This document shows, piece after piece, positions 19,422 through 58,799 of a stretch of DNA of 62,561 nucleotides; the stretch's first letter is position 1, and every line of letters begins with the position of its first letter. The stretch is from an uncultured Methanosarcinales archaeon. GTDB lineage: Archaea > Nanobdellota > Nanobdellia > Woesearchaeales > ARS49. The DNA is taken from the NCBI GenBank assembly GCA_964497645.1, contig CAZCCU010000003.1, forward strand, positions 1 to 62,561. The letters are read 5' to 3'. The notes under the pieces were generated by a model that saw only the letters and a program-made list of their open reading frames with translations, had not been told where the DNA came from and ran no database searches. The position numbers and the translations under genes are program-made.

Positions 19422-20144
19422 ATGCCTGACGTTTACTCAGACCTGGAAAAGCTGAACTTCAGCACTAATGAGTCCAAGGTGTACCTTGCTCTCATCAGAA
19501 TTGGCTCTTCTTTTGCAGGCAGGATAGCTAAGGAAGCTAATCTTGACAGAAGCAGTACTTACAACGCCCTGAAACAGCTGATCGAGCGGGGCATTGTATC
19601 GACTGTGTTTGAAAAAAAGCGTACTATCTATGTTCCGGCTGACCCAAAAAAGATTGTTGATTACTATAAGGAAAAAGAGGAAATCGCCAACAGGGTTATT
19701 CCATCTTTGCGCCAGCTCTTCTCAGTGCAGAAAGAGAGAAAAAATGTTCTTCTCTTCCAGGGCTACAAGGGGCTCAAGACGATTTTGCAGGATATGCTTG
19801 ACTCTGGCGACAAAGAGCAATACGTTCTTGGCTCAGAAGGGCAGTTAAGGGAGCGCATGCCGTATTACGCGCCTATTTTTAGCAAGATGAAACAGGAGCG
19901 CGGCATTAAATCAAAAGTGCTCATCCGAGCAGGCAGGACAGACACTTCTAGAGGCAGGACGACTGAATATCGTGAAGTTCCTTCAGATGTTGTTTCGCCA
20001 GCCACTATCAACATCTATGGTGGCAAAGTGGCTATTTTTATCTGGGATGAAAAGCCAGAAGCAGTACTAATAGAAAATGAGAAGGTCAGCCAGACTTTGA
20101 AGAATTATTTTGATTTCATGTGGAAGCATGCGAAGAAGTTTTAA
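19422..20144 (+). CDS. TrmB-family transcriptional regulator
   Basis: wHTH STNESKVYLALIRIGSSFAGRIAKEANLDRSSTYNALKQLIERGIV. Confidence 0.8.
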   Translation: MPDVYSDLEKLNFSTNESKVYLALIRIGSSFAGRIAKEANLDRSSTYNALKQLIERGIVSTVFEKKRTIYVPADPKKIVDYYKEKEEIANRVIPSLRQLFSVQKERKNVLLFQGYKGLKTILQDMLDSGDKEQYVLGSEGQLRERMPYYAPIFSKMKQERGIKSKVLIRAGRTDTSRGRTTEYREVPSDVVSPATINIYGGKVAIFIWDEKPEAVLIENEKVSQTLKNYFDFMWKHAKKF

Positions 20145-23363: not shown

Positions 23364-23364
23364 A

Positions 23365-23386
23365 TTTTTTTATTTTATTTTTTCAA
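23365..23386 (+). terminator. Oligo-T terminator candidate
   Basis: TTTTTTTATTTTATTTTTT follows the stop. Confidence 0.4.
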
Positions 23387-23533
23387 TTTAATTACAGAGA
23401 GTGAAGACACAGTGAACTACGATAGAAGACACGTTGAAGCGTTAAAGAAGCGGCACCACGCCCATCACTTTCCTTTTCTGAAGGCTTTTCTTTTGTTGGC
23501 AGCCTTGGTGTTCATTCTTTTGACAGTGTTGCG

Positions 23534-24154
23534 TTAGCGCAGCGGCACAAAGACATAACCTCCTAGCTTCTCATGGAAATAGTCTTTTCCTTTTCTTCTC
23601 ACGCGTATAAGCTCTTGCCCATACTCTGGTCCTACTGGCATTAGCAATACGCCGTTGTCTTTGAGCTGTTTTAACAGAACGTCAGGTATCTTTTCAGCTG
23701 CAGCCGTGACGATTATCCTGTCATATGGCGCTTCTTTGGCATGTCCTTTTTTTCCGTCGGAATGAATCACAGTAACGTTCTTTATTCCGGCTTTTTTCAG
23801 GTTCTTCTTGGCAAATTCAGCCAATTCCTTTATTCTCTCAATACTGTATACTTTTCCGGCAAGTTTGCTTAATAGCGCTGCATTATACCCAGAACCAGCT
23901 CCTATTTCGAGCACTTTCATGCCTTCTTTGACTTCAAGTGCATCTAGCATCAGAACTACCGTGCTTGGCTGTGATATTGTCTGTCCTTCAATGATTGGTA
24001 GGGCGCTGTCTTCGTATGCCGCCTCTTTCCATCTCGGCAGTACGAATTCTTCGCGCGGTATTTGTTTGAATGCAGAAATCACTCTTTTGCTTATCCCCAT
24101 TTTTTCAAATTGCCTGATGAGTCTTTCTTTCATATATTGCAACATATAAACCAT
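23534..24154 (-). CDS. pcm: Protein-L-isoaspartate O-methyltransferase
   Basis: GQTISQPSTVVLMLDAL and VLEIGAGSGYNAALL. The track ORF extends to 24283 and overlaps ppsA. The internal ATGs at 24154, 24145 and 24133 are more plausible. Confidence 0.85.
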   Translation of the reverse strand: MVYMLQYMKERLIRQFEKMGISKRVISAFKQIPREEFVLPRWKEAAYEDSALPIIEGQTISQPSTVVLMLDALEVKEGMKVLEIGAGSGYNAALLSKLAGKVYSIERIKELAEFAKKNLKKAGIKNVTVIHSDGKKGHAKEAPYDRIIVTAAAEKIPDVLLKQLKDNGVLLMPVGPEYGQELIRVRRKGKDYFHEKLGGYVFVPLR

Positions 24155-34622: not shown

Positions 34623-34881
34623 TGTCCTGTCCCAGACCTGTCCCAGTCCTGAGACGGTCCTGAGACCGTCCCAGTTGCACATATAATATAGTCGAATAAT
34701 CAGTCCTAAGATAGTCCCAAATTAGTCCCAATCAAATCCTGAGACTGTCCTGGGACGGTCCTGAGACTATCTTGAGACGTTCCCAGGACTGTCCCAGTCC
34801 CAGCATTTTATCGTCGATAAATTAGTCCTGGGACGGTCCGAAATAGTCCCAGTCCCAAACACACATATGGGACCGTCCCAT
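34623..34881. repeat. Dense iteron array built on GTCC(C/T)(A/G)R
   Basis: I count 18 top-strand GTCC tetramers in about 260 bp. The longer unit GTCCTGRGAC occurs about 6 times and GTCCCAG about 6 times. Hairpin GACGGTC-CTGA-GACCGTC at 34653-34670. Palindrome ATGGGACCGTCCCAT at 34867-34881. Confidence 0.85.
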
Positions 34882-37662: not shown

Positions 37663-38360
37663 TGCAATTTTTCAGGTGCTGGTATTTAAAGCTTTTGGCT
37701 ACTCTTTATTTTTTTTTAAATATAGAAAATTATTAATTTAACTTCTGAAAAGTGATAATAAAAGTTTAAATAAAATACACCTTACAAAATATATAATGGC
37801 AACTACTGCTGATAAAACATAAATAAGAAAGAATATGATATAAACTAAAAGTCTGAAAGAAAATATCACAAACTGTATTTTCAAAAATATCTATTGTAAA
37901 ATTACCAAAACCCTCACTTTTTATCAATTTCTGTGAGTGAAAAGTGAGCTTTCGTTGTTAGTTGGCTGTTTAGGCGCTTAAACAGGCAGGTCCAATAGTG
38001 CAAAACAGCAAATTTGAAATTCTCGTGCCTAATTATAATAGATTTTATGATGCCTAAAGAACTAAGAGTTTTTAGTTATTTTTTTACAAGTGCAAGCTGC
38101 AAGAAGGCACTCAGCTGTGTGTAGTTGAGCCTGTAAAGTGAGAGTTAGGTGAGTCAGGAGCAGAAAGAAACAAAACAAAAGATAGGCACTATTCAGAAGT
38201 CTTGTTTTTCTGTACCGTGTAGGCTTGTAGAAAGAACTGTAAAGGATAAAAAAAGTGAGTGTTGCTAGTGAAATTAGGTTAAAATCCCTGAAATCATTGT
38301 TTCTTCTTATCTGACTAGTGGTGATAAGTTCTTTTATATAGGGGAGTTCATGAAAAATGA
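37663..38360. other. About 0.7-kb AT-rich non-coding region with AAAGTGAG repeats
   Basis: No ORF of 60 aa or more. AAAGTGAG at 37941, 38135 and 38252, plus an inverted copy at 37913-37921 forming a 9-bp stem with 37940-37948. Confidence 0.7.
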
Positions 38361-43367: not shown

Positions 43368-43452
43368 TTTATGTCAACCCCGCTGTTTATTGCGATATAC
43401 CAGATTCTAGTATATAAATCTTTCTATATATTCACTACTTGATAGTAGTCAT

Positions 43453-46380: not shown

Positions 46381-47229
46381 ATGGGGCGTAAAAAGTCAAT
46401 TATTGCGGCAGTATTCACCGGCATCGGCAGAGGCATTGCTTGGATTATCGTCAATATTTTCAAGGCTCTGTGGTTTTTGATAGTTGGCTTGTTCAAAGGC
46501 GCTAAATCCGCTACTAAAGCCACTGCTTCTGCTGCTTCAAAAGTGCATCACGATGCTAAAGTTCGTGCAGAACAGCCTAAGGTTCCTGCGAATTATGATT
46601 CATTGAAAGAATCAACTGCGGTCAAAGGCTCTATTGAATCTTTCGAGCACCGTTTGTTGAATGAAAGCCTTATTCTGGCTGTTGCCGGCAGGCGTGGCAG
46701 TGGAAAGTCTGTTCTTGGCTTCAGAATTCTTGAGAACATTCACGCGAAGACGCAGAGGCCATGTTTTGCTCTTGGTGTTAAGCAGTCCGTTTTGCCTTCT
46801 TGGATAACAACTATAGAGGAAATCAGCCAGGTTTCCAATCGTGGCGTTGTATTGGTTGACGAGGGCGCGATTAGTTTTGGCAGCAGGGAGAGCATGAGCA
46901 AGGGTAATCGTGGTCTTGCTGGTCTGCTCGCGATAGCCCGTCATAAAGACCTGACTTTAATCTTCATAACCCAAAATACTGGCATGATTGACAAGAACGT
47001 TCTGAACTTGTGCGACACTATATTACTGAAGGAAGGCAGTTTGTTGCAGGAGAAGATGGAGCGCAGTGTGATGAAGGATTTGTATGTTACTGCTAATTCT
47101 GCTTTGTCTGAAATTCCTGCTCACGAGCGAAAGCCTTACTGTTATATTTTCGACGCAGAGTTTGAAGGTCTTGTCCAAGCCTCCTTGCCAAGTTTCTGGA
47201 GCGTTAAAGTGAGCAAGAATCAGGCATGA
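46381..47229 (+). CDS. TM-anchored mini P-loop ATPase, FtsK/HerA-superfamily-like
   Basis: N-terminal TM. Walker A AGRRGSGKS and Walker B GVVLVDEGA. IARHKDLTLIFITQNTGMIDKNVLNLCDTILL resembles the HerA/FtsK/VirB4 R-finger/sensor region. Confidence 0.6.
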   Translation: MGRKKSIIAAVFTGIGRGIAWIIVNIFKALWFLIVGLFKGAKSATKATASAASKVHHDAKVRAEQPKVPANYDSLKESTAVKGSIESFEHRLLNESLILAVAGRRGSGKSVLGFRILENIHAKTQRPCFALGVKQSVLPSWITTIEEISQVSNRGVVLVDEGAISFGSRESMSKGNRGLAGLLAIARHKDLTLIFITQNTGMIDKNVLNLCDTILLKEGSLLQEKMERSVMKDLYVTANSALSEIPAHERKPYCYIFDAEFEGLVQASLPSFWSVKVSKNQA

Positions 47230-48215
47230 CAAACTTCTGCTTAGGCATCGAAAGCACCGCGCACACCTTTGGCTGTGGAATCGTGACTTTTGAAGGAAAC
47301 ATTATTGCGAACGAAAAAAATACTTTTACGACTGAAACAGGCGGTCTTATCCCAAGTGAAGTCGCTAAGCATCATGAGCAGTTGAAAGATGTTATTCTGC
47401 AAAAAGCTCTTGCCTCTGCAAAACTCGAAATGAAAGACATCTCGCTTATTTCTTATTCTGCCGCTCCTGGCCTTGCGCCTTCTTTGTTAGTAGGACTAAA
47501 ATTTGCCAAAGAGCTTGCCAAGAAGCATAATATTCCATTAATTGGCGTCAACCATAGCATTTGTCATTTAACCATCGGTGATTTAATCTGCGGCACAAAA
47601 GATGTAGTCTATCTTTACGTCTCTGGTCCCAACACGCAAGTCATTGCGTATGCTGGTAAAAGATATCGTATTTTTGGCGAAACATTGGACATCGGTCTTG
47701 GCAACATGTTGGACAAGTTTGCTAGAGAGATCGGTCTTGGTTTTCCAGGCGGTCCTAAAGTCGAGCAGTTGGCGAAGTTAGGAAAGAATTACGCAGAATT
47801 GCCGTATTCCGTGAAAGGTATGGATGTTTCCTTTGCGGGAATGCTTACAAAAGCGTTGAGATTGCATAAGCAAGGCGCTTCTAAAGAAGATTTGTGTTTC
47901 AGCTTGCAAGAAACCGCGTTTGCCATGCTTGCAGAAGTTGCAGAGCGTGCAATGGCTCATACTGACAAGAAAGAGTTATTGCTTATAGGCGGTGTTGCTG
48001 CCAACAAGCGTTTGGGAGAGATGCTTAACATCATGTGCGATGAGCGCGGCGCGAAATTCTTTGCCGTGCCTTTGCAATACAGCGGCGATCAGGGTGTGAT
48101 GATTGCCTGGCAGGGTGTTCAGCAGTTCAAGGCTGGAGAAACAATTGATCCTGACAAGGCAGAAATCAGGCCCTACGAGCGTGTTGATGAGGTTGAGGTG
48201 ACGTGGCGTGAGTAG
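47226..48215 (+). CDS. kae1: tRNA N6-adenosine threonylcarbamoyltransferase Kae1
   Basis: LGIESTAHTFGCGIV, HSICHL and GGVAANKRL. No fused Bud32 domain. Confidence 0.92.
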   Translation: MTNFCLGIESTAHTFGCGIVTFEGNIIANEKNTFTTETGGLIPSEVAKHHEQLKDVILQKALASAKLEMKDISLISYSAAPGLAPSLLVGLKFAKELAKKHNIPLIGVNHSICHLTIGDLICGTKDVVYLYVSGPNTQVIAYAGKRYRIFGETLDIGLGNMLDKFAREIGLGFPGGPKVEQLAKLGKNYAELPYSVKGMDVSFAGMLTKALRLHKQGASKEDLCFSLQETAFAMLAEVAERAMAHTDKKELLLIGGVAANKRLGEMLNIMCDERGAKFFAVPLQYSGDQGVMIAWQGVQQFKAGETIDPDKAEIRPYERVDEVEVTWRE

Positions 48216-49085: not shown

Positions 49086-50954
49086 TTATGAAGACGGTTT
49101 GAGCTGTTTTAAGACGGCTTCTTTTCCTGTCCAGTCCAGTGCTTCTTTCAAAACTTCATCCAACTGTTCGACTGGGATTATTTTTACTTTCGCCAGTTTT
49201 GCTTTGTCCACGATAATGTCCTGCAAATTCGACTTTGGCACGATTATTTTTTTGATGCCTGCTTCTATGGCGGCTTCTACTTTTGCCGAAACGCCGCCAA
49301 CCGGCAATACTTCTCCTCTGACGCTCAAGCTTCCCGTCATTGCAGTATCCTGCCTAACTGGCACGTCTTTCAAAGCGCTAATTATGGCAATCGCCACTGC
49401 TATGCTTGCGCTGTCTCCTTCAACGCCTTCGTATGTCTGCAGGAATTGTACGTAAATGTCGTAATCTTTGATGTCCGTGCCAAAATATTTTTTGACGATT
49501 GGCGTGACGTTTTTGATTGCTTCTTTGGCAATTTCTCCTAGTTTTCCAGTGGCAACAATCTCTTTTTCTTTGCCCCAAGGTCCGACGGCTGCTTCAATTG
49601 GCAATATTATTCCTGAGAACGTTCCTCCTCCTCCAATGACTGCAAGGCCGTTGACTCGTCCAACCTGCTTGCCTTCTGTGACTATGACTTCGTATTCTCT
49701 TTTTCTTTCTATGAACTTGTCCGCGATTTGTTGTTCAAGCGGTCGTGCTATTTTTTTGGCGAGTGAGAAGTGTTCTGGTTCGACGAATTTGGCTTTTTTC
49801 TCCACGGCGATGTCTCCTGCTGCTCTTATCAAACCGCCAAGTTCTCTCAGCCTTAATGTCAAATGTGCTTTTCTGTTTGCGAGTCTTCTTGCGTCGTCAA
49901 TGACTGAGAGTACTGCTTCTCTGGTGAAGTGTGGTATTTTTTTGTCTCTTATGACTTCTTGTGCGACAAATCGTGCTATTTTTTCTCTGTTGTCTGGCGT
50001 GTCTGCTACTGTGTCTTTCATGTATATTTCGTAACCATACCCGCGGATTCTGCTTCTCAGTGCAGGGTGCAGGTGTTGGACTGTCTCGACATTGCCTGCA
50101 GCAACAAGGATGAAATTGCATGGGACTGGTTCTGTTCTTACCATAGCTCCTGCTGATCTTTCGCTTTGTCCTGTGATTGAGTATTTTCCTTCCTGTAGTG
50201 ATGTGAGCAGTTCTTGTTGTGTCGTTGGGTCTAATGTAGCAATCTCATCGACAAACAGGACTCCCATGTGTGCTTTGTGTATTAGCCCAGCAACGACTCT
50301 TTCGTGTGCTGGTGTGCCCAGTCCTCCTGATTGTAATGGGTCGTGCAACACATCACCTAGTAATGCGCCTGCGTGTGCTCCTGTTGCGTCCCAGAATGGT
50401 GCTTGTTTTTTGCCGTAATTGTCTACGATGACTTTTGGCGCGTCTATTCTTTGCCCTCCGAATGGTCTTCTGTTGACGCTCATGAACATTACGTATGCTG
50501 CCAGGAATACCATGCCTCCTAGGAAGAATGCAGCGAACATGACGTCGCTGTTATATTGTTTTCTTGCCCACCATGGCATTATCATTGATGCGATTAAAAG
50601 CGCGATTAGAATGATGTTCTGCAGTTTGAAGAATCCCATGTTTTGGATTCTTGCTTTGGCTACCAAGTCTCTGCCTTTTCCAGCAGAAACAGTTCTGATT
50701 AAAGGCTGGTTTTCATCGTTTGGGTTGAAGAACGCCAGAATGTCCATTAATTTCTCTTTTGGCAGTAATTCTGCGAGTGCCATGCCGAGCATGCTTTTTC
50801 CTGTGCCTGGCTCTCCTATCAATAGAACGTGTCTTCTTTGTCGTGCTGCTTTTTTGACTATTGCGCAAGCTTCGTCTTGGCCTATGACTTGGTCTATGAT
50901 CTTCTCGGGTACTTTTATCTCTGCTGTCGTTTTGAAATCGAGTTCTTTTGCCAT
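49086..50954 (-). CDS. lon: Archaeal membrane-bound Lon protease (LonB)
   Basis: [10 protein letters not shown] Walker A. TM hairpin inserted in the AAA module. C-terminal Lon protease domain with [11 protein letters not shown] and a Ser-Lys dyad context. Confidence 0.92.
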
Positions 50955-50982
50955 GCCCCGTTATTGTCGTCGAGAAAAGGGA

Positions 50983-50990
50983 TTTATAAA
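50983..50990. promoter_or_regulatory. Palindromic TATA box TTTATAAA in the lon divergent region
   Basis: Lies about 30 nt upstream of the lon ATG (minus strand) and upstream of the plus-strand operators. Confidence 0.5.
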
Positions 50991-51006
50991 GCTTGCGCTT
51001 GAAAAT

Positions 51007-51021
51007 CCGTAAAGTTTACGG
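51007..51021. promoter_or_regulatory. Operator-like palindrome CCGTAA-AGT-TTACGG (copy A)
   Basis: Read directly. Flanked by AAAAT. Confidence 0.6.
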
Positions 51022-51027
51022 CTGGAC

Positions 51028-51042
51028 CCGTAATTCTTACGG
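51028..51042. promoter_or_regulatory. Operator-like palindrome CCGTAA-TTC-TTACGG (copy B)
   Basis: Centre lies 21 bp from copy A. Flanked by ATTTT. Confidence 0.6.
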
Positions 51043-51088
51043 ATTTTGTATCGATGGGTATATTAGAAACCACTCCTTAGTCAAATCC

Positions 51089-51628
51089 ATGGGTCTGTCA
51101 GCGTTAGTTCGTGAATTGATTGCCGAAGGAGCGATGCTCAGTCATAGTGGCAGTTCCACTCCGTGGAATGTTGGTGTTGGTCACGAACACAGGAGTTATC
51201 TGTCCGAGAGTTTTAGCCTGTCAAAAAAGCTCAAACTTGGCAGCGCGGCCAAGGAGCACAATTGTCGACTCGATATTGATTTTTTTTATATAGTGGGGTC
51301 TGCGCCTACTCGTGGCTCGCCATTGGAAATGCTTGATGAGCTTGAAAAGACCTTGAAGGCGTACTGTTTGACGCTTTTAGACGAGGTTCCTGAAGAATCT
51401 AGCTCTGTAGAAGCTGACGTGGTGATCGCAAATGGCCGTATTGAGTATGGCGGGCAATCCTCCACGTATCAAAATTATCTGAATTACTTAAATGGCTGGA
51501 CGATTGAAAAAAAGCTTAAATTTGGCTTTTTTGGAAGCATGTGCGAGGAAAGAGTTTTCAAGGTAGTCAAGACTTGCTTTGGGGTTGACCGTGGCAGTGA
51601 TTCGCAGCCGCCAGTCCAGAATTTATAG
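51089..51628 (+). CDS. Hypothetical protein
   Basis: The track ORF starts at TTG 50993, inside the promoter/operator region. The first in-frame ATG is at 51089. Confidence 0.45.
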   Translation: MGLSALVRELIAEGAMLSHSGSSTPWNVGVGHEHRSYLSESFSLSKKLKLGSAAKEHNCRLDIDFFYIVGSAPTRGSPLEMLDELEKTLKAYCLTLLDEVPEESSSVEADVVIANGRIEYGGQSSTYQNYLNYLNGWTIEKKLKFGFFGSMCEERVFKVVKTCFGVDRGSDSQPPVQNL

Positions 51629-51687
51629 TCACCCAGTAGTAGTGAAAAATCGAAACATTTAAATAGTCCGAAATCTGTATTCTTCCT

Positions 51688-53973
51688 ATGGTAAAAAGAG
51701 TTTTGATGACGGCTCACCAGTATGCACAAGGTGGTGTAGGAAAGGTTGTTTATAAGCTAGCAGAAGCTCTCAAGAAAGAGGGAGTTGAAGTTGATGTTCT
51801 TGAAAAGGGCTGGAATAAGCCATACGAGCTTCATAGGAGCAATGATAGTGCTAGTACTGTCACTGCAAATTCTTTTGCTCAGCTGCAGCGTTCTGGTCTT
51901 GATCTGGCATCATACGATCTTCTCCATATTCACAGTATTAATCTTGCCTGGACTGGAGCTCTTAAGCAGATTTGTGACACGGCAAACATTCCAACGGTCT
52001 ATACTGCCCATTCTGTTGTTAGTCACGAAAAGGAGTTGTATGAGAAAACCGGGCAAGATGTTCCTAAGTGGATGCGTGAGGACATCAAGGCTCAGGATCA
52101 GGTTGTTAAAGTGTCTGACAAGCTGTTTTTGCTTACTGATCCAGGTAAGAAGATTGCTGAAAGGCACTATGGAGAGAGCATTTCAGTTGTTCCAAATGGT
52201 GTCGATCATGTTAAGGTTCCTGATGAAATTTCTCAGCTGGTCAAAAAAACATATGCTCCTCTAGCGGATGACGTCTTGTTATACGTTGGTCGTATAACTC
52301 CTGATAAAGGTGTTAAGGAGCTTGTTGATTCTTTCCCTAGAATTCAAGAGGAATATAGAAAAAAGACTGGGAAGAGAATGGAGCTTCTGATGGTTGGTCC
52401 TTGTCAGGAAGAAAAGCCATTCATGGATTCAGTCCAGAAAAGCATTGCTCCGGAGTACAGGGATTCTATAAAGTTTGTTGGAGAAGTTACCGATCCTGCA
52501 TTGATGGCTGCTTTTTACAATGCGGCATCCTGGCATATTTTGCCTACAAAGCACGATAGCTTCCCTGGAGTGACGTTGGAAGCCATGATACAGGGCACTC
52601 CGACGATTGGTACTAATGTTGACGGACTGAGTGATATTATCAAGGACAAGGTCAATGGTTTGCACATTAATCCAAAATCTTTGAAATCGCATGATTTGAA
52701 TGAAGGTATTGTTGAAGCAATGAGTTACGCGATGGATCATAAGAAGGAAATGGCTGAAATGGCCAAGACCGCACAGCAGTCAGCTCAGCAGAAGTATAAT
52801 TGGAGGAATATTGCAAAGCTTGCTTTGAGCGAATATGATTCTGTTGTTCAATCAAAGGGCCGTACAGTGCACAAGCCGATTGCCAATAAAAGAAAGATTT
52901 CTTTGGAAGGCAAGCGTATTGGAATTGTTGGTCATTTTGCATACAAGAATGGGGCGATTGCAGATGGTGTTGCGCGATGGTGTGAAGGCGCAATGTCCAG
53001 CCTGAAAAAATCAGGTCATGATGTCAGTGGCATCGGTATAGTTGGTGAGTCTCGTGATGGTGTTGAAGTTGTGCGTGGATACTCCGACATTGGTGAGGCC
53101 ATAAGCAAATCCGATTTTGATGTCTGTATAATCAGAGGAAATGAGCAGGTCGCAAAGGAAGCGCTTGCTGCCTGCAGGGCTCGCGGAATTAAGTCTTTGT
53201 GGGTTCAGCCTTACTGGGGTGTCTGGCAGGGAGTTTACGATCTTGTGAACCAGGCAGACGCAACTATTGTTCCAACTGAGGAATATGCAGAAGTGCTTTC
53301 AGCACAAACTGGGAAAGAAGTTCAAGCAATACCATTCCCTCTTGACACGAATACGTGGAAGCCTCGCGCATTTAATAAAATCTTTGATGAGCCGAACGTT
53401 GCCTATGTTGGTCGAGTGACGAAAGACAAAGATTTGTCGAAGCTGATTACACCATTCAAAAGAGTGCGCTCAAGATTCCCGCGGGCAAAATTATCGATTA
53501 TTGGTCCTGGCGATGAAGAAACTAATATTGCTATTCAGCAGGCTGCTCGCGAGAATGGTTTTGAAGGCTCGTTAGTTCGGGTAGATAAGAGATTGACGAG
53601 CGAAGAGGTTGGGGAGGCTTATGCTTCTGCTGATGTTTTCGTGTTCCCGACGAATGAAAGTTATGGTCAGTCAAACCTTGAAGCAATATTAACAGGCACT
53701 CCTGTGGTTACTTTTGATGCGGTTCCTTTTGCAGGCTATCGTGTTCCTTCAATGAGCTGGATGCATGGCTATAAGTATTCTGCAAACCCGTTGGCACCTG
53801 ACATGTGGAATGATTTTGCTGATAAGATAAGTGATGTTTTGGAAGATCCTGTAGCAGCAAGACTTCATACTGCCAGTTTTTCGAATGATTTGAGAAATAA
53901 TTTCTCATGGGACGCTCTCAAGACTAATTTAGTTGGTTCTTTAGAGTCTGTTTTGACTGAGAAAGCAGCTTAA
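51688..53973 (+). CDS. Tandem double glycosyltransferase (two GT4/GT-B modules fused)
   Basis: Module 1: GGVGKVVYKLAEAL, GRITPDKGV, FPGVTLEAMIQGTPTI. Module 2: VGRVTKDKDL, ESYGQSNLEAILTGTPVV. Confidence 0.75.
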   Translation: MVKRVLMTAHQYAQGGVGKVVYKLAEALKKEGVEVDVLEKGWNKPYELHRSNDSASTVTANSFAQLQRSGLDLASYDLLHIHSINLAWTGALKQICDTANIPTVYTAHSVVSHEKELYEKTGQDVPKWMREDIKAQDQVVKVSDKLFLLTDPGKKIAERHYGESISVVPNGVDHVKVPDEISQLVKKTYAPLADDVLLYVGRITPDKGVKELVDSFPRIQEEYRKKTGKRMELLMVGPCQEEKPFMDSVQKSIAPEYRDSIKFVGEVTDPALMAAFYNAASWHILPTKHDSFPGVTLEAMIQGTPTIGTNVDGLSDIIKDKVNGLHINPKSLKSHDLNEGIVEAMSYAMDHKKEMAEMAKTAQQSAQQKYNWRNIAKLALSEYDSVVQSKGRTVHKPIANKRKISLEGKRIGIVGHFAYKNGAIADGVARWCEGAMSSLKKSGHDVSGIGIVGESRDGVEVVRGYSDIGEAISKSDFDVCIIRGNEQVAKEALAACRARGIKSLWVQPYWGVWQGVYDLVNQADATIVPTEEYAEVLSAQTGKEVQAIPFPLDTNTWKPRAFNKIFDEPNVAYVGRVTKDKDLSKLITPFKRVRSRFPRAKLSIIGPGDEETNIAIQQAARENGFEGSLVRVDKRLTSEEVGEAYASADVFVFPTNESYGQSNLEAILTGTPVVTFDAVPFAGYRVPSMSWMHGYKYSANPLAPDMWNDFADKISDVLEDPVAARLHTASFSNDLRNNFSWDALKTNLVGSLESVLTEKAA

Positions 53974-54494
53974 CGCGAGCCTGGTGGTCTTGGTGGCGTT
54001 GGTTCTGGTGACGGAGTTTTCTTCTTTTTTTCTTTAAAGAGCGAGTGCAATCCCCAGATTAGTCCGCCGAACAATAATAGTAAGAGAAGTACCAGCCAGA
54101 TGTTGTCTTCGTCTATCATTCCTGCCTGGGCGAGAGCGTAAAGGAAGAATAAGCCCATTAAGCCGAGCATGATCGCCATGAAGAGTTTGCTTTTGACTTC
54201 TCCGCCGGCCAGTCCGAGTACTAGTGCGAGTAGAAGTCCAATGACTATTAATAACACGAAGTAGAATAATATTATGTTGATGATGTTCAGCAAGTTAGTT
54301 GCCAGCACTGCGAAGAATCCCATGACGAACGCTACCATTGCGTTAAGTTTTTTCTTTGGTTTCTTGCCGTCCATTCCAAATACGTTTGTTCGCTGGAGAA
54401 CTCCGTATGTGATGGTGAATACGAGGAAGAATGGCAGTAAGACTTCGACTAAGCCAATGTCTACTAAGAACTGGAACACCTCTTTGTATGCCAT
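53970..54494 (-). CDS. Hypothetical membrane protein (4-5 TM) with Pro-rich tail
   Basis: Hydrophobic throughout. C-terminal PSPEPTPPRPPG. Confidence 0.5.
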   Translation of the reverse strand: MAYKEVFQFLVDIGLVEVLLPFFLVFTITYGVLQRTNVFGMDGKKPKKKLNAMVAFVMGFFAVLATNLLNIINIILFYFVLLIVIGLLLALVLGLAGGEVKSKLFMAIMLGLMGLFFLYALAQAGMIDEDNIWLVLLLLLLFGGLIWGLHSLFKEKKKKTPSPEPTPPRPPGSR

Positions 54495-54629
54495 GATGCT
54501 TAATAGCTGAACTCATTTTAAAAAGCTTGTGCCAGGCCACTAAAACATATACGCTTTAGATCTTCACCAGAGCTATATGGATACATTTATATACGATAAT
54601 TTGTTTTAAATCATTAAAGAGGTTATGCC

Positions 54630-55517
54630 GTGAAAAAAATATTTTTGGTGTTCCTATTGTTTTTTTTAGCCTCTTGTGTCGGTCGTTCTATAGACTCAGC
54701 TGATAGGGTTTTCATTGCTCGTGTTGTTTTTCCTGATGGGACTCTTGCTGAGAATGCAGAGGTGTCTTTGTATGCAAAAAGTGTTGAGACTCCTTTTGCT
54801 ATCGAAAGAACCAATTCTAAAGGTCTTGCTGATTTTGGCGAACTTCCCGTTGGCTTGTACACGATTAAAGCTGCTATTGAAAATTATGTAGGCGCGCGCA
54901 AATGTAACGTGATTGCCAGCTATAATCCTACATACACGTGCCGTGTGAGACTTAAACTAGCAGAATGTAATCAGGGAGAGCGTAACTGTATTACTGAGAC
55001 AGATGGCGAAGTCTGTATTGATGGAACATTGCAAGATTTATCCTGTCCTGAGAGTACTTTCTGTAGTGTGAGTAAAGAGTCAAAGGCGTGTGTTGCGTGT
55101 AGGGATGCTGCTGATTGTGCTGCTGGGCAGATCTGCAAGGGATGGGAGTGTATAACTCCACAAGAGTGCAGTCCGTTTGAAAGGCAATGTCTTTCCGCAA
55201 CTACGGGAAAGGTTTGTGGTGCAAAAGGATTCTGGATGGAGAGTTTTGTCTGTCCTTCTGAAGCTGCTTTCTGTAGTGTGAGTAAAGAGTCAAAGGCGTG
55301 TGTTGCGTGTAGGGATGCTGCTGATTGTGCTGCTGGGCAGATCTGCAAGGGATGGGAGTGTATAACTCCACAAGAGTGCAGTCCGTTTGAAAGGCAATGT
55401 CTTTCCGCAACTACAGGAAAGATTTGCGGTGCAAAAGGATTCTGGGGAGAGAGTTTTGACTGCGCACCTTGGGGCAGGGTCTGCAGTGTAGCCAAGGATA
55501 CAAAGCCTTGTGCTTAA
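54630..55517 (+). CDS. Lipoprotein with CarboxypepD_reg-like N-domain and Cys-rich repeat modules
   Basis: Lipobox FFLASCVG. VVFPDGTLAENAEVSLY...TNSKGLADFGELPVGLYTIKA. Repeated module CSVSKESKACVACRDAADCAAGQICKGWECITPQECSPFERQC. Confidence 0.65.
   Translation: MKKIFLVFLLFFLASCVGRSIDSADRVFIARVVFPDGTLAENAEVSLYAKSVETPFAIERTNSKGLADFGELPVGLYTIKAAIENYVGARKCNVIASYNPTYTCRVRLKLAECNQGERNCITETDGEVCIDGTLQDLSCPESTFCSVSKESKACVACRDAADCAAGQICKGWECITPQECSPFERQCLSATTGKVCGAKGFWMESFVCPSEAAFCSVSKESKACVACRDAADCAAGQICKGWECITPQECSPFERQCLSATTGKICGAKGFWGESFDCAPWGRVCSVAKDTKPCA
55057..55476. repeat. Two tandem 210-bp units inside the lipoprotein gene, 148 bp perfectly identical
   Basis: 55057-55204 is identical to 55267-55414. 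Only scattered mismatches occur afterwards. Confidence 0.9.
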
Positions 55518-55546
55518 CTATTTTTCAGACTGTCTAAAAGAATATC

Positions 55547-56371
55547 TTAACGCTTCTCAAACGGTCTGCAGATGTCAAAGAATGGGCATTGTCCTGTGCT
55601 GTACTTGCATAATGGGCTTGGGCTTTTTGGGTAATGGTTGACGTCTTTTGTTTGCGTGACTGCGTGCACGTGTTCTATTTCTTTTTTTGCCATGTCGAGG
55701 AGTTCTTCGTCTACTTCTATTGATGTTTCTTTTCCTTTCAGGAAGTATACGCCGACTTGTTTTGGCATGACTCCATGCTTGTCGAAGTAAAGCAAGGAAT
55801 AAATTCCGAGCTGTAAAAGATGTTCATTCAGGTTCTCTGAGCTTGATGTTTTGTAATCCATTAAGCGAACAGTTCCGTCGCTGTTGTGTTCTATCGCATC
55901 AATTATGCCTCTTGCGTGGTATTTTTCTGAGGTGAACATCAGTTCTCGTATTGGCGTTAATTGTTTGAAGCGTTCTTGGAAGTTTCCTTCTTTTGCTTCT
56001 AATTTCCTGCAGAATAGCTCCAGCCAGTTGAACAGCATGTTTAGTGTTTCTTCAAAATAGTGTATTTGCTTGTCTTGTGTTAATTGTAATTTGTCTAGCT
56101 GTGGCTTGTAGTGTTTCCATTCTTTCAATAACAGCTGTTGCATTATGAGTTTGAGGTGCGGCCCGTAATCATCCATTGTCATGAAGCTTGTGTCGATGTC
56201 AAAGTAGTGTTCAAGCGCTGAATGTGCTATGTTTCCTCGAACAGTATGAATGTTGGGCGGTTGTTCCAGCTCTAAAATGTAGGAATAATAGTATTTTCTG
56301 GGGCATTGCTTGTATGTTTTTATCGAGCTTGGACTCTGCACTTTTCTTTCTTTCATTTCACCCTTTTGCAT
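55547..56371 (-). CDS. Cas4/RecB-like PD-(D/E)xK nuclease with 4-Cys cluster
   Basis: N-terminal CPRKYYY, core RGIIDAIE...LMDYKTS, QLGIYSLL, C-terminal CKYSTGQCPFFDIC. Confidence 0.65.
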   Translation of the reverse strand: MQKGEMKERKVQSPSSIKTYKQCPRKYYYSYILELEQPPNIHTVRGNIAHSALEHYFDIDTSFMTMDDYGPHLKLIMQQLLLKEWKHYKPQLDKLQLTQDKQIHYFEETLNMLFNWLELFCRKLEAKEGNFQERFKQLTPIRELMFTSEKYHARGIIDAIEHNSDGTVRLMDYKTSSSENLNEHLLQLGIYSLLYFDKHGVMPKQVGVYFLKGKETSIEVDEELLDMAKKEIEHVHAVTQTKDVNHYPKSPSPLCKYSTGQCPFFDICRPFEKR

Positions 56372-56417
56372 GAAAAAATGGAAACGATGGTCCTTAATAT
56401 GTCTTTAGGTGGAAAAT

Positions 56418-56432
56418 CCGTAAGATTTACGG
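56418..56432. promoter_or_regulatory. Operator-like palindrome CCGTAA-GAT-TTACGG (copy C)
   Basis: Flanks GAAAAT and ATT. Lies 47 nt upstream of the nuclease ATG. Confidence 0.6.
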
Positions 56433-56542
56433 ATTAGTGTTTCCTGATTTTGGTTTTCAGGCTTTCTGACGGGATTATGGGTTAGCAAATTCTTCACTCC
56501 ATTGTCGGAGTGTCAGGCCTTTTTATAGGTCTCAGAAAAAAC

Positions 56543-56557
56543 CCGTAAAGTTTACGG
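56543..56557. promoter_or_regulatory. Operator-like palindrome CCGTAA-AGT-TTACGG (copy D)
   Basis: Lies about 12 nt downstream of TATA-like TTTTTATAGG (56520-56529). Confidence 0.6.
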
Positions 56558-56620
56558 ATTTCTCATCGCAGCAAATATTAAGCAGTGAATCATGGAATAA
56601 ACTGCGCCGGCGCACACCTT

Positions 56621-56905
56621 ATGAAACGCAAATCACTGCTGCTGATATCGTTAACACTTTCAATAATCGGAATCATTGTTCTTTTCTTCCTCAAGCCGGA
56701 AGTCTCTCCTCAGTCTTTGCAATTATCAGGAGTGGTAAAATACGTCAATCAAAAGGAGAATGTCGCATTCATCAGTTTTGTTCCCGACAATTTAACAGTG
56801 GTTTCTTTTGATAATCCAGACTTAGAGCCAGGACATCATGTCCTAACAGGCCGTTTGCAGCAATACAAAGGCAGGGTAGAATTTATTGTTGACGAGTATG
56901 ACTAA
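56621..56905 (+). CDS. TM-anchored OB-fold-like protein
   Basis: TM LLLISLTLSIIGIIVLFF. The pattern GVVKYVNQKENVAFISF...GRLQQYKGRVEFIV is like tRNA_anti/OB folds. Confidence 0.45.
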   Translation: MKRKSLLLISLTLSIIGIIVLFFLKPEVSPQSLQLSGVVKYVNQKENVAFISFVPDNLTVVSFDNPDLEPGHHVLTGRLQQYKGRVEFIVDEYD

Positions 56906-57558
56906 AACGGCATGAATAAGTCGGCAAAAAAGACGTATCTGAGTACGAAGTAAATAATCAGCGCGATTATTCCCAGGACTATGAGTCTTTTGAAGAATGA
57001 TGCTATTGCTCTTCTTCGTCGTAATATTTCGTCGTACTGGCTTTTGACTCTGAATAGTCTGATCGGATATTTCATTCCTTTGAGTTTTTCCAGTCCTAAA
57101 TGGACGTATGGTATCTCGCGCTTGTTCATTGCTTGGAATACTGCATCGCTGAAGACTATGTGGCCTGCTTGTGCCACGCCTTCTATTCGTGAAGTGGTGT
57201 TGACTGCTTCTCCAAACACGTCGTCGTTTCTGATGATGACTTCTCCTGTGTGCACTGCAACGCGTATTTTGATGGATCTTTTAGCGTGCCGGTTGTATTG
57301 GTCAAATGCGTTTTGCAGTTCAATTCCGCATAAGAGTGCGTTGGTTGGTGATTTGAAAGTTATCAGGAAGGCGTCTCCGATTTTTTTGATGACTTTGCCG
57401 TTATATTTGGCGAAGAGTGGAAGGGAAATGCTGTCAAAATTGTCGTGCAGTCGGGTGAATTCTTCTCTGCTCAGCTGTGCTGTTGTTTTGGTATACCCGA
57501 CTATGTCGGTGAACATTACTGTGAGGATTTCGCTTGATTCGTGTACTCGAGGATTCAT
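56902..57558 (-). CDS. Class III nucleotide (adenylate/guanylate) cyclase with C-terminal TM helix
   Basis: MFTDIVGYT, KKIGDAFLITF, RVAVHTGEVI and GEAVNTTSRIE. C-terminal LIVLGIIALIIYFVL. Confidence 0.8.
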   Translation of the reverse strand: MNPRVHESSEILTVMFTDIVGYTKTTAQLSREEFTRLHDNFDSISLPLFAKYNGKVIKKIGDAFLITFKSPTNALLCGIELQNAFDQYNRHAKRSIKIRVAVHTGEVIIRNDDVFGEAVNTTSRIEGVAQAGHIVFSDAVFQAMNKREIPYVHLGLEKLKGMKYPIRLFRVKSQYDEILRRRRAIASFFKRLIVLGIIALIIYFVLRYVFFADLFMPF

Positions 57559-57581
57559 ATCAGCGTGAGTAAAAAAGGGGG

Positions 57582-57589
57582 TTTATAAA
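57582..57589. promoter_or_regulatory. Palindromic TATA box TTTATAAA in the cyclase divergent region
   Basis: Lies about 24-30 nt from both the cyclase ATG (57558, minus) and the GTG at 57615 (plus). Confidence 0.5.
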
Positions 57590-57592
57590 ATT

Positions 57593-57607
57593 ACGTAATT
57601 TTTACGA
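57593..57607. promoter_or_regulatory. Degenerate operator copy ACGTAA-TTT-TTACGA (copy E)
   Basis: The outer positions differ from the consensus. Flanks are AAAATT and ATTTTT. Confidence 0.45.
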
Positions 57608-57614
57608 ATTTTTC

Positions 57615-58799
57615 GTGCCAGGGTATAATAAGCATCAAAATGTCTATATCAGAATGTTATTCGCAGTCCTTGCTGGCATTCTGACGGGAATTATTGCCGG
57701 TCTTCTTCCCGGTATTCATGCGAATTTAATCTCTGTGATTGTTGCTGGTTTGCATTTTGACGTGTGGCTTTCTTCTGTTTTTCTGGTCGCCATGGCCGTT
57801 TCGCGTTCGATTATTGACGCCATACCAGCGGTTTTTCTTGGCGCGTCAGAGGATGTGATGGCGCTGCTCCCAGGCCACAAATTATTAAAGAAAGGTTTTG
57901 GTGTTGAGGCCGTGAAGTTTTGCGTGCTGGGCAGCATTTTGGGAGTGATTGCTGGCGTTCTGCTTGTTCCAGTTTTTATTTTCATCTTTCCGATGTTATT
58001 CTCATTAATCCGCCCAATATTGTTCTGGCTGATCTTGACATTAGTCAGTATCTTGTTGTTTAGAGATTCGTGGTGGTCGGTTGTTGTGTTCATTCTTGCG
58101 GGTATTCTTGGCATTATTTCTTTGGACAGCGTGCGTGAGCCGTTATTTCCTCTTTTGTCTGGTCTTTTCGGCGCAAGTGGTTTATTGTTCTCGCTGTTCA
58201 GTAAAGTTGAGATTCCCCCGCAGTTTGACACAGACACATTGAGGATGCGGAAAATTCCTATGTTTTTTTCAGTTCTGACTGGTGTTCTTGCAGGAAGCAT
58301 TGTGACCTTATTTCCTGGTCTTGGTCCTTCGCAGGCTGCTGCTCTGGCTCAAATAAAACGTATGAAATCTATACGTTATCTTGTTTTAACCGGCGCTTTA
58401 GGAACAATTGATGTTATTGTTTCGCTCGTTACTTTTTTTGTTCTGAGCAAGGCCAGAAATGGCTCTGTGGTCGTTATTGAGCAGCTTCTGGGCTCAATCT
58501 CGAGTTCAATTCTCTATTCGTTCATCGCAATCGCGTGTGCCTCTGCTGGTATTGCGGCTATTATCGCATTATTTGCTTCAAAGTGGTACGCGAAATTGGT
58601 GGAAAATGTTGATTACGCATTAATTTCATTGACAGTTTTGTCGTTCTTATTGGTGATGAGTTATGTGTTGTCCGGCTGGCTTGGTATCTTGGTTTTCGTA
58701 ATTGCCGCTCTAATCGGCCTTATCGCTCCATTGACAAATGTTTCTAGAAGTCATGGGATGGGCTGCTTGCTTATTCCAACATTGTTGTTGCTGTGGTAA
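57615..58799 (+). CDS. Polytopic membrane protein, TctA/DUF112-like
   Basis: GLLPGIHANL and LFPGLGPSQAAALA motifs, about 10 TM helices. GTG start (alternative ATG at 57654). Confidence 0.5.
   Translation: MPGYNKHQNVYIRMLFAVLAGILTGIIAGLLPGIHANLISVIVAGLHFDVWLSSVFLVAMAVSRSIIDAIPAVFLGASEDVMALLPGHKLLKKGFGVEAVKFCVLGSILGVIAGVLLVPVFIFIFPMLFSLIRPILFWLILTLVSILLFRDSWWSVVVFILAGILGIISLDSVREPLFPLLSGLFGASGLLFSLFSKVEIPPQFDTDTLRMRKIPMFFSVLTGVLAGSIVTLFPGLGPSQAAALAQIKRMKSIRYLVLTGALGTIDVIVSLVTFFVLSKARNGSVVVIEQLLGSISSSILYSFIAIACASAGIAAIIALFASKWYAKLVENVDYALISLTVLSFLLVMSYVLSGWLGILVFVIAALIGLIAPLTNVSRSHGMGCLLIPTLLLLW

Follow-up and report, generated by a model that had tools for sequence, protein, structure and literature searches.

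Palindromic candidate sites for a dimeric transcription factor in a copied promoter module of a Woesearchaeota archaeon

Genes and palindromes at the locus

The window, as we call the whole stretch of DNA analysed here, is 62.5 kb long and comes from a Woesearchaeota (DPANN) archaeon; scanning of the source genome covered these 62 kb only. The genes that lie beside the palindromes, or close to them, are listed below.

49086..50954, minus strand: LonB protease gene (lon), adjoining a site in this genome only
51089..51628, plus strand: unk179, an orphan gene, the first of a cassette missing from all relatives
51688..53973, plus strand: double GT4 glycosyltransferase gene, with a match to PF20706 'GT4-conflict'
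55547..56371, minus strand: stand-alone Cas4-like PD-(D/E)XK nuclease gene, the conserved partner of the sites in relatives
56621..56905, plus strand: OB94, a small protein, helical at the N-terminus and all-beta in its C-terminal part (low-confidence model)
56902..57558, minus strand: class III nucleotidyl cyclase gene, found between OB94 and TctA in part of the clade only
57654..58799, plus strand: TctA-family membrane protein gene, 381 aa

OB94 is the first gene of an OB94-TctA operon in relatives that have no cyclase. Only two homologues of unk179 exist among 1.8 billion representative proteins, and a family search with it gave no match. AlphaFold models of unk179 and OB94 reached pLDDT values of 52 and 59, respectively, too low for a fold search. 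The glycosyltransferase gene has its own canonical TATA box, TTTAAATA, and a distinct palindrome-like element, AGTAGTAGT, and may thus be independent of the sites described here. A defence-system reading of the cyclase, Cas4 and Lon genes was rejected, as PADLOC returned only a weak PycC match (1e-7) and generic Cas4 and Lon matches. Since OB94 and TctA are conserved without the cyclase, the locus is not a Pycsar-like operon.

A preliminary description of this DNA reported five copies of the palindrome CCGTAA-N3-TTACGG, confined to three divergent promoter regions and always next to TATA boxes. Our analysis bears this out. Four copies, at 51007, 51028, 56418 and 56543, are perfect, and the fifth, at 57593, is the degenerate ACGTAA-N3-TTACGA; all five lie in three divergent intergenic regions spanning 6.6 kb, and TATA-like boxes adjoin every one of them. 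The spacing of 21 bp, centre to centre, given for the first two copies is likewise correct. The AAAAT/ATTTT flanks ascribed to all copies adjoin each site on one side at least, though not on both: CTGGA/TGGAC stands at the inner ends of the tandem pair, and ATTAG to the right of the site at 56418.

51007..51021, no strand assigned: site W1, CCGTAAAGTTTACGG, outer flank AAAAT, 16 nt from the lon TATA box
51028..51042, no strand assigned: site W2, CCGTAATTCTTACGG, 21 bp from W1 (centres), 16 nt upstream of the unk179 TATA-like box
56418..56432, no strand assigned: site W3, CCGTAAGATTTACGG, 16-17 nt upstream of the Cas4-like TATA-like box
56543..56557, no strand assigned: site W4, CCGTAAAGTTTACGG, 16 nt upstream of the conserved OB94 TATA-like box
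57593..57607, no strand assigned: site W5, degenerate, ACGTAATTTTTACGA, 16 nt upstream of the TctA TATA-like box

Matches to the relaxed core CGTAA-N3-TTACG number exactly five in the 62.5 kb, and intergenic DNA, which makes up 11% of the window, contains all five sites. Central spacers of 0-8 nt other than N3 yield at most one match each in the window, leaving N3 as the sole enriched length. When up to two mismatches were allowed, shuffled versions of the window gave a mean of 0.83 matches against the five observed, and none of 100 shuffles reached five. A scan at three mismatches gave 53 matches in the window compared with 38 +/- 6.5 in shuffles, two of 100 of which reached 53. Since this count is barely above that of the shuffles, we claim no additional weaker sites.

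Promoter geometry and conservation among relatives

The TATA boxes that flank the sites are the following.

50983..50990, minus strand: lon TATA box, TTTATAAA, kept in all relatives, there without an adjoining palindrome
51059..51066, plus strand: unk179 TATA-like box, TATATTAG, followed 23 nt later by ATG 51089
56392..56401, minus strand: Cas4-like TATA-like box, CATATTAAGG, in relatives CATAA(A/T)AAGG
56574..56581, plus strand: OB94 TATA-like box, AATATTAA, aligned with TTAATATT/TTAAAGA in all relatives
57582..57589, minus strand: cyclase TATA box, TTTATAAA, abutting W5, likewise in each cyclase-carrying relative
57624..57631, plus strand: TctA TATA-like box, TATAATAA, followed by ATG 57654

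Judged by the TATA boxes conserved in relatives, the sites lie upstream of TATA for lon, the Cas4-like gene and the cyclase, as had been proposed. For the plus-strand genes the proposal was the opposite, a repressor-like position downstream of TATA, and this had to be abandoned: the conserved boxes at 51059-51066, 56574-56581 and 57624-57631 each start exactly 16 nt after a site, so that here too the sites are upstream. The last plus-strand gene does not start at 57615, as first given, but at the ATG at 57654, which is in frame, agrees with a JGI gene call of 381 aa and is found 46 nt past W5; the ATG at 57641 belongs to another frame.

A distance of 16 nt from the core to the start of the TATA-like octamer is common to five of the six window promoters. 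Of these, three (unk179 from W2, the Cas4-like gene from W3, and TctA) have their start codon 46 nt after the core, and leaders are short at the other two, OB94 and lon. Only the cyclase promoter of the window departs from this layout: its TATA box abuts the site, 3 nt from W5. Over seven genomes or contigs, 16 of 19 site-promoter pairs have an A/T-rich TATA-like octamer 16 (+/-1) nt after the core, and the start codon lies 45-47 nt past the core in most of the 16-nt promoters where a start could be placed. As the unk179 ATG comes 23 nt past its TATA-like box, its mRNA is probably leaderless. With transcription starts placed from TATA boxes and start codons, the site centre would fall near -54 of such leaderless transcripts. 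The boxes of unk179, OB94 and TctA are non-canonical when compared with the typical aagnTTTATAAA promoters of the window; lon and a ribbon-helix-helix (RHH) gene on the related contig L223 have canonical BRE/TATA boxes.

We scanned about 249 kb, consisting of the window and close relatives, for CCGKAA-N3-TTMCGG with at most one mismatch. All 17 matches, checked by hand, were in promoter regions. In close relatives the sites have their ancestral place in the DNA that separates OB94-TctA from the Cas4-like nuclease gene, as two copies in tandem with centres 21 bp apart. This intergenic region carries, at an unchanged position, either the motif or variants diverged to CCGGAA, and the tandem pair of locus L006 is likewise spaced by 21 bp. 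Sites orthologous to W4 are found in L002, L003, L006 and L220, and the L003 orthologue of W5 has one perfect half, CCGTAA. W3 lies within a 75-nt segment (56413-56487) that is missing from L002 and L003. Among the window, L002 and L003 the half-sites are invariant at orthologous positions and the central triplet and +1 flank vary. Pooled half-site counts are C 30/38, C 37/38, G 38/38, K 36/38, A 37/38 and A 38/38, and G or C occupies 17 of the 57 bases of the central triplets.

Membership of lon in a common regulon, as put forward in the preliminary description, does not survive this comparison. The motif is found upstream of lon in none of 13 close relatives, one of which has a 98% identical LonB, and L002 has the same lon promoter, which functions without a site. 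The lon pair of the window came along with the inserted cassette of the orphan gene and the glycosyltransferase gene, and the lon|unk179 region and, in relatives, the OB94|Cas4-like region form a colinear alignment. Over 39-40 nt, spacer and TATA included, copies of the module share 62-74% identity (repeat families D2 and D3); part of this similarity may stem from recent duplication and not from selection.

Gene insertions recur at the sites. In L004 two genes (1.2 kb) are inserted between sites A and B of the tandem pair, and each promoter retained its site; 60-135 bp are inserted between the same sites in the window, L002 and L003. In all cases where a cyclase gene separates OB94 and TctA, the TctA promoter so created comes with a site at the 16-nt distance. 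The module of site, 16 nt and TATA also precedes toxin-antitoxin-like (TA-like) and other accessory genes in related contigs, and in L003 and L221 TA-like cassettes with module copies lie between Kae1 and g46381. The conserved core is OB94-TctA together with the Cas4-like gene, and not the regulon of proteolysis, nuclease and second messenger that had been suggested. The cyclase and unk179, like the association with lon, are lineage-specific additions brought by gene insertions.

Candidate regulators of the promoter module

Sites of a dimeric transcription factor common to several promoters, as originally proposed, are the best reading of the promoter-only matches, the fixed TATA spacing and the conserved half-sites. 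We consider it probable that the palindromes are binding sites of one such factor, within a promoter module that was copied before several conserved and newly acquired genes. A sequence-specific dimer would bind the consensus aaAATCCGKAA-N3-TTMCGGATTtt, and a dimer of dimers would occupy the tandem pair. The predicted order of the module is site, 16-nt spacer, weak non-canonical TATA box and start codon about 46 nt after the site. The ancestral copy would have controlled OB94-TctA and the Cas4-like gene in both directions, from two sites, A and B, that are 6 nt apart and have a TATA box on either side. Duplication or rebuilding of the module in this lineage may have placed it before new genes, that is, before unk179 upstream of lon, and the TctA promoter may have arisen when the cyclase gene split the OB94-TctA operon.

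Sitting a few bp upstream of BRE/TATA on a fixed helix face, the factor might modulate TBP/TFB recruitment at both flanking promoters. Weak-TATA promoters would most likely be activated by the bound factor; at the cyclase promoter, where the factor would overlap the BRE, repression is more likely. The activator reading has limits in that lon and the L223 RHH gene, with their canonical boxes, should need no activator, and that the cyclase geometry deviates.

The geometry of the sites points to the Lrp/AsnC (FFRP) family as the leading, though unproven, candidate. FFRP sites have the form abcdeWWWedcba, and the SELEX optimum of FL11 is CCGAAA[AAT/ATT]TTTCGG, binding being abolished only by an all-G:C centre (PMC2715240). 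The motif CCGKAA-N3-TTMCGG has this form, with a centre that is 70% A/T (40 of 57 bases) and never all G/C, though not strictly W. Like the FL11 site of Pyrococcus sp. OT3 it is a 15-bp palindrome with 6-nt halves and an A/T-rich 3-nt centre, differing by one base per half-site (CCGAAA versus CCGTAA or CCGGAA), and natural FL11 sites are likewise degenerate and clustered. In contrast to FL11, the centre triplet here often holds one G or C, the host is a DPANN archaeon and not a member of the Thermococcales, and FL11 is best known as a lysine-dependent repressor that binds over its promoters. In the recognition code described for FFRPs, an arginine at residue 39 of FL11 goes with a G at base position c (PMC2715240); among the relatives studied here, L006 and L011 are rich in CCGGAA.

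Lrp sites occur in clusters spaced two or three helical turns, and those of Lrp-type activators lie at a constrained position a few bp upstream of the BRE (PMC2995911). In our data, centres lie 21 bp apart in the tandem pairs of the window and L006, and 20 bp apart in L221, with W3, W4 and W5 as single sites, and the core-TATA distance is the constrained one described above, as far as TATA and BRE can be placed from sequence. The targets of Ptr2, LysM and Ss-LrpB similarly have a dimer site at a highly constrained place a few bp upstream of BRE/TATA, and those of Ptr2 have two regularly spaced sites (PMC2995911); the 21 bp found here matches their extra sites two or three helical turns off. 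Unlike in these systems, the half-sites are different, one site pair serves two divergent promoters symmetrically, and activation is suggested by geometry and weak TATA boxes only.

A Pfam scan of all 79 called window ORFs of at least 60 aa found two TrmB-family proteins, and no Lrp/AsnC gene was found either in the window or in loci L002-L014 of close relatives. A phmmer search with the Lrp and AsnC proteins of E. coli detected Lrp-like ORFs only in the distant Woesearchaeota loci L022, L024, L032 and L066, near which no similar motif was found. A homologue search with the L024 Lrp gave seven matches, none linked to this clade. TrmB-like and Lrp-like regulators turn up about equally often in these genomes, and the loci searched yielded no regulator gene that could be linked to the sites. 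In the literature we found no paper that ties CCGTAA/TTACGG palindromes to an archaeal regulator and no description of promoter motifs in Woesearchaeota.

Other families of binder were compared in the same manner. The TrmB operator is TACT-N3-AGTA and that of TrmBL1 is TATCAC-N5-GTGATA. These are short palindromes, some with a 3-nt centre as here, and their effect depends on position relative to BRE/TATA, but the half-site sequence differs. Both TrmB genes of the window have other palindromes upstream, ACTACTATGTAGTAGT at 5363-5378 and TTGTAGAACTTTCTACAA at 19366-19383, neither with CCGTAA, and TrmB-family operators were rejected as far as these two paralogues go; a third may exist elsewhere in the genome. 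The sites resemble operators of RHH or AbrB antitoxins in that they are palindromes which, in L003, L221 and L223, precede cassettes of the PIN, RHH and DUF4258-like kinds. The RHH gene in L223 itself has the module, and RHH proteins are further possible binders. Unlike antitoxin operators, the sites lie 16 nt upstream of TATA without overlapping the core promoter, and the motif also serves genes that are not TA-like (OB94-TctA and the Cas4-like gene). The VapBC-like pair of the window (7497-8134), whose RHH gene was seen only via a gene call on a related contig, has no such site. Homologues of the L223 RHH gene occur only in L017 and L018, where their promoters have no clear motif.

Alternative explanations and wider occurrence

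The same palindromes could be operators of a repressor, a tetramer of which, lodged where some 67 bp separate two TATA boxes, would block or distort the BRE/TATA region on either side and silence both divergent promoters. This is essentially the repressor idea of the preliminary description. We regard it as possible but rather unlikely. Toxin-antitoxin genes, with which some of the targets here share features, are classically autorepressed, and this was counted in its favour. It is also consistent with the site that abuts TATA and overlaps the BRE in each cyclase-carrying relative, with the canonical promoters that need no activator, and with the fact that many archaeal regulators, Lrp-like ones included, repress or act both ways (PMC2995911). 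Against this stand the 16 of 19 cases in which the core ends 16 nt upstream of TATA, with no overlap of TATA or transcription start, and the non-canonical boxes of unk179, OB94 and TctA, which fit activator dependence; moreover, a strictly constrained distance is a reported hallmark of Lrp-type activators (PMC2995911).

Mobility is a different matter. The copies border lineage-specific insertions (unk179-GT4 by lon, the cyclase, the TA-like cassettes in L003 and L221), two independent insertions fall exactly between sites A and B, the copies are alike beyond the palindrome, and a tyrosine recombinase gene lies at 358-1638. The element might then be a mobile or recombinogenic module, a dispersed promoter repeat or a cassette-insertion site, with the palindromes as recombinase or transposition signals. 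In core sites of the dif/att type, a crossover region of 6-8 bp is flanked by two inverted recombinase-binding arms; a replicon usually has a single such site, or the site adjoins the recombinase gene. Formally, the tandem pair can be read as two inverted 20-nt arms with 6 nt between them. But each arm is palindromic in its own right, unlike recombinase-binding elements, W3, W4 and W5 occur as single sites, and the only recombinase gene of the window is 50 kb away. Furthermore, TATA and start codon are kept at fixed distances, which is not required of a recombination site, orthologous sites persist in stable, uninterrupted positions across relatives, and no terminal inverted repeats or target-site duplications were seen around the copies. 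We judge this explanation to be very unlikely. As to MITEs, which the preliminary description had set against its promoter reading, the sites do share with short dispersed repeats several similar intergenic copies of 40-85 bp, some at indel edges. Unlike in MITEs, similarity is confined to site, spacer and TATA, and the copies all look like working promoters at a fixed distance from a start codon; the repeat families end at TATA and palindrome, with no flanking duplications at the window copies, and a MITE was rejected. A short dispersed repeat is thus present, but as a duplicated promoter module, which refines the promoter reading without refuting it. Hairpins in RNA or DNA (terminators, attenuators, small-RNA ends) seem hardly credible as the function of the palindromes. 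The extended 23-mer recurs, among the matches listed, in many unrelated bacterial metagenome contigs in terminator-like contexts; on the minus strand a TATA-like box (56520-56529) precedes W3 and TTTT follows it, making a transcript of about 85 nt conceivable; and the 110-nt W3-W4 segment folds with z = -3.3. However, hairpins of single sites are weak (-4.2 to -9.1 kcal/mol, two being no better than shuffles), the candidate small-RNA segment is missing from L002 and L003, and Rfam has no match in the window. Located between divergent starts and upstream of the TATA boxes as placed here, the five sites are probably untranscribed. An intrinsic terminator or structured RNA was rejected on this location, the weak hairpins and the Rfam result.

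The promoter-module reading makes the motif a credible transcription-factor site of a known type, with no new kind of mechanism. DPANN archaea cannot be grown alone and have very few regulators, and to our knowledge almost nothing is known of their transcription control. A motif with fixed promoter geometry offers a concrete handle on that control, with a predicted regulon of a conserved transporter operon, a Cas4-like nuclease and strain-specific accessory genes; it supplies a PWM for scans of MAGs and a bait for DAP-seq or pull-down. It also suggests how, in a small genome, inserted genes may gain regulation through copying of an existing promoter module. A bolder idea, to which we give only a small chance, is that the bidirectional region of about 85 bp (TATA, site, site, TATA) is a portable regulatory cassette and a preferred insertion point for lineage-specific accessory or conflict genes, such as toxin-antitoxin pairs, the GT4 'conflict' cassette and the nucleotide cyclase, which would land at or between the sites or bring a module copy. 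If so, genome-reduced DPANN archaea would automatically bring the genes they capture under a common regulator, in a manner that recalls gene capture by integrons.

Searches that started from the genes at the two ends of the window gave contigs that end at the same points as the window. Scans of viral and metagenome sequences for the motif gave at least 120 matches each. Nearly all of the matches listed were unrelated, being bacterial terminator-like hairpins or high-GC stretches, and the informative contigs among the matches listed were only L220, L221, L223 and L281. The high-GC stretches resemble coding sequence reading FKSVNxTDL.

A palindrome confined to divergent promoters

Perfect copies of CCGTAA-N3-TTACGG occur, as the preliminary description had reported, at 51007 and 51028 (the tandem pair W1/W2), 56418 (W3) and 56543 (W4), and a fifth, degenerate copy, ACGTAA-N3-TTACGA, lies at 57593 (W5). 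All five lie in the non-coding 11% of the window, within three intergenic regions separating divergent genes.

Window genes around the sites (minus strand where marked)
49086-50954, minus: LonB
51089-51628: unk179, an orphan of 179 aa
51688-53973: double GT4 glycosyltransferase ('GT4-conflict' hit)
53970-54494, minus: membrane protein
54630-55517: repeat protein; two 210-nt tandem copies, 96% identical, at 55057-55462; weak CarboxypepD_reg-like hit
55547-56371, minus: stand-alone Cas4-like PD-(D/E)XK nuclease
56621-56905: OB94, a protein of 94 aa
56902-57558, minus: class III nucleotidyl cyclase
From ATG 57654 (true start, not GTG 57615): TctA-family membrane protein

LonB homologues assign the window, essentially an entire metagenomic contig, to the Woesearchaeota (DPANN archaea). 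Dinucleotide-preserving shuffles of the window give a chance expectation of 0.83 matches at two or fewer mismatches, and none of 100 shuffles reached five. When the core was relaxed to CGTAA-Nx-TTACG (x from 0 to 8), the window yielded five instances with x=3, one with x=5 and zero with the remaining spacers. No further weak copies are claimed, the count at three mismatches being just marginally above chance. The AAAAT/ATTTT flanks ascribed to every copy are present on at least one side of each site and absent from the inner flanks of the tandem pair. The pooled half-site consensus is aaAAT|CCGKAA, in which all 38 half-sites have G at position 3. The preliminary description had also considered that the motif might be as frequent inside coding regions genome-wide; in the ~249 kb scanned (window and close relatives), all 17 matches at one mismatch or fewer are promoter-borne and none lies outside promoters.

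A known RNA was rejected on zero Rfam hits in the window, and a terminator because the sites lie between divergent starts and single-site hairpins are weak (-4 to -9 kcal/mol). Unrelated metagenome contigs of bacteria frequently contain the perfect 23-mer AAATCCGTAA-N3-TTACGGATTT, in terminator-like hairpins or coding-looking stretches, so beyond this clade the sequence by itself is not diagnostic. The bacterial copies are unrelated to the archaeal sites. They occur in high-GC contigs with mutually similar flanks (L253, L255-L257, L272, L293, L304, L305 and others), and one reading frame encodes FKSVNxTDL; they may represent a conserved protein motif that encodes the palindrome by chance.

One promoter module and its copies

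Typical promoter boxes of the window (aagnTTTATAAA or TTTATATA) lie ~25-35 nt ahead of the start codon, so most of its mRNAs are probably leaderless. An A/T-rich TATA-like octamer starts exactly 16 nt past the palindrome core toward unk179, OB94, TctA, lon and the Cas4-like gene, and the distance from core to start codon is 46 nt for unk179, TctA and the Cas4-like gene; these distances would put the site centre at about -54 relative to the inferred start sites, for the promoters on either side of a divergent region. The cyclase promoter departs from this: its box, TTTATAAA, starts at the fourth nucleotide past the core, with 3 nt in between. The boxes of unk179 (TATATTAG), OB94 (AATATTAA) and TctA (TATAATAA) are weaker than the window norm. 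The sites had been described as downstream of TATA for the plus-strand genes; the opposite is the case, since they lie upstream of boxes conserved in relatives, and the earlier placement had used the neighbour's TATA (50983-50990, 57582-57589) or an extra box (56520-56529). This extra box, CCTATAAAAAGG, is located in the W3-W4 interval, and two close relatives (L002 and L003) retain it. The 110-nt segment between W3 and W4 (56433-56542, minus) is more stably folded than shuffled controls (z = -3.3), and TTTT follows W3 on the minus strand; the segment may represent either a small transcript or what is left of an inserted cassette.

Copies of the module (site, spacer, TATA-like box and start codon) share 62-74% identity over 39-40 nt, spacer and TATA included, and the spacer often contains CATCGA. 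Furthermore, the window's lon|unk179 region is colinear with the relatives' OB94|Cas4-like region, unk179 replacing OB94 and lon replacing the Cas4-like gene. Because the similarity extends beyond the palindrome and includes this alignment, the five copies are best regarded as deriving from a single bidirectional control region. A dispersed repeat such as a MITE had been named as the alternative to a promoter motif; the copies do form a dispersed repeat, but the repeat is a promoter. No terminal repeats or target duplications were found around the copies, and every copy retains its distance to the start codon. Several indels at or between sites hint that the module might conceivably serve as a portable cassette or insertion hotspot, bringing accessory genes under the control of a single regulator.

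Conservation in relatives

For comparison, 80 Woesearchaeota LonB loci were fetched. Close relatives (L002-L013) show the order TctA, optional cyclase and OB94, and divergently Cas4-like gene, membrane protein, a variable insert of 0-2.4 kb and LonB. Their OB94|Cas4-like region has the motif, or diverged CCGGAA versions of it, at the equivalent position; in L006 the pair AAAATCCGGAAAGTTTACGG-gttag-TCCGGAAACCTTACGA lies between two TATA boxes with the same 21-bp spacing as the window pair. Among the window, L002 and L003, half-sites are invariant, whereas the centre triplet and +1 flank vary. Both sites are kept in the window's OB94|Cas4-like region, 125 bp apart, and a 75-nt segment holding W3 (56413-56487) is missing from L002 and L003. 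In L004 two genes are inserted between the two sites, and a site is retained at each promoter. Wherever the cyclase lies between OB94 and TctA, TctA has a new promoter with the 16-nt site spacing, and this site directly adjoins the cyclase TATA. The module also precedes a DUF4258/DUF2283-like pair (named by eye) inserted between orthologues of Kae1 and its neighbour g46381 in L003. In L221 it stands ahead of a small gene adjacent to PIN genes, in L223 ahead of a PIN gene and also of an RHH gene, and in L281 ahead of the gene for a small membrane protein.

The preliminary description had counted lon in the regulon. None of 13 close relatives carries the motif upstream of lon; in L002, whose LonB is 98% identical, the membrane-protein gene's stop codon abuts the same lon TATA. 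The W1/W2 pair accompanies the unk179-GT4 cassette, which is found in no relative. The proposed regulon is partly right, in that several promoters share the sites, but lon became a neighbour of the sites recently and in this strain only, and the argument from position had the direction reversed. Together the data show a motif that is promoter-restricted and fixed in spacing, that relatives conserve and that has been copied to new promoters; the palindrome is real and specific, and most likely a cis-regulatory motif.

unk179 has just two homologues among 1.8 billion representative proteins. The repeat-protein gene 54630-55517 is missing in all close relatives and is therefore another insertion in the variable region. 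The class III cyclase is present in some close relatives only, and its hits to PycC (Pycsar cyclase) are weak; this small DPANN contig also encodes a GGDEF diguanylate-cyclase-domain protein (13673-14362). At the g46381-Kae1 junction the genes overlap in the window (46381-48215), and relatives carry toxin-antitoxin-like cassettes there (L003 9415-10040). A duplicated 30-nt copy of the g46381 3' end borders the L221 cassette (810-840 and 1695-1725), which suggests repeated insertion at this junction.

Candidate regulators and other promoter motifs

The palindrome resembles sites of archaeal Lrp/AsnC proteins (FFRPs) in its 6-nt halves and 3-nt A/T-rich centre, its tandem copies two helical turns apart and its fixed place a few bp upstream of BRE/TATA. 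FFRP SELEX optima are all of the form abcdeWWWedcba, and that of FL11 is CCGAAA[AAT/ATT]TTTCGG (PMC2715240), one base per half-site different from the window palindrome. Lrp sites are clustered two or three helical turns apart, and activator sites of Ptr2, LysM and Ss-LrpB lie just upstream of BRE in a highly constrained position (PMC2995911). Lrp/AsnC genes are present in other Woesearchaeota loci; none was found in the window or the close relatives' loci, and a homologue search linked none to the motif. TrmB-like genes are about as frequent, and the window's two TrmB-family genes carry other palindromes in their own promoters. RHH proteins are possible binders as well.

We propose that a dimer (a dimer of dimers at pairs) would bind near -54 and contact or position TBP/TFB at both flanking promoters. 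It would most likely activate the weak-TATA promoters (OB94-TctA, TctA, unk179 and the accessory cassettes) and most likely repress the cyclase promoter, where the site overlaps BRE. The main alternative to this mixed role is a purely repressive one. With a canonical TATA of its own and another motif, the GT4 gene may be independent of the sites.

A second, more widespread promoter motif, ACTACT-N2-4-AGTAGT, occurs at 2679, 3399, 5363-5378, 8173, 18560, 22972, 43434-43449 and 51635-51643; its hexamers (ACTACT/AGTAGT) number 28 in the window, 13 of them inside the 11% intergenic DNA. The motif also precedes lon's divergent neighbour in L004-L014 and, at close range, the GT4 promoter. A perfect ACTACTATGTAGTAGT (5363-5378) separates a TrmB-family gene (4549-5349, minus) from its divergent neighbour, and this regulator probably recognizes the ACTACT-type motif. 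The second TrmB-family gene (19422-20144) has the 18-bp perfect palindrome TTGTAGAACTTTCTACAA (19366-19383) directly upstream of its TATA, probably as its own operator. Another perfect palindrome, of 23 bp (TCGGAAATCCAAAGGATTTCCGA, 12398-12420), precedes the TATA of a DEAD-box helicase gene (11174-12370, minus) by 2 nt. In the L004 TctA|cyclase region, TCGGAAAT/ATTTCCGA arms are also present on either side of CCGTAA-type sites.

A VapBC-like pair on the minus strand comprises a PIN gene (7497-7916) preceded by an RHH_12 gene (~7913-8134, seen solely via a gene call on contig L325); the pair has an ACTACT element upstream and no CCGTAA site. Four to five copies of the 11-nt unit TCCTGAGACGG lie at 34737-34794 within a 540-bp gene-free stretch, which had no Rfam hits, nor had the gene-free stretches 23364-23807 and 37663-38360. 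A tyrosine recombinase gene (phage integrase family, 358-1638) stands at the contig's very beginning, and the ~450 bp preceding it contain the break points of several independent assemblies.
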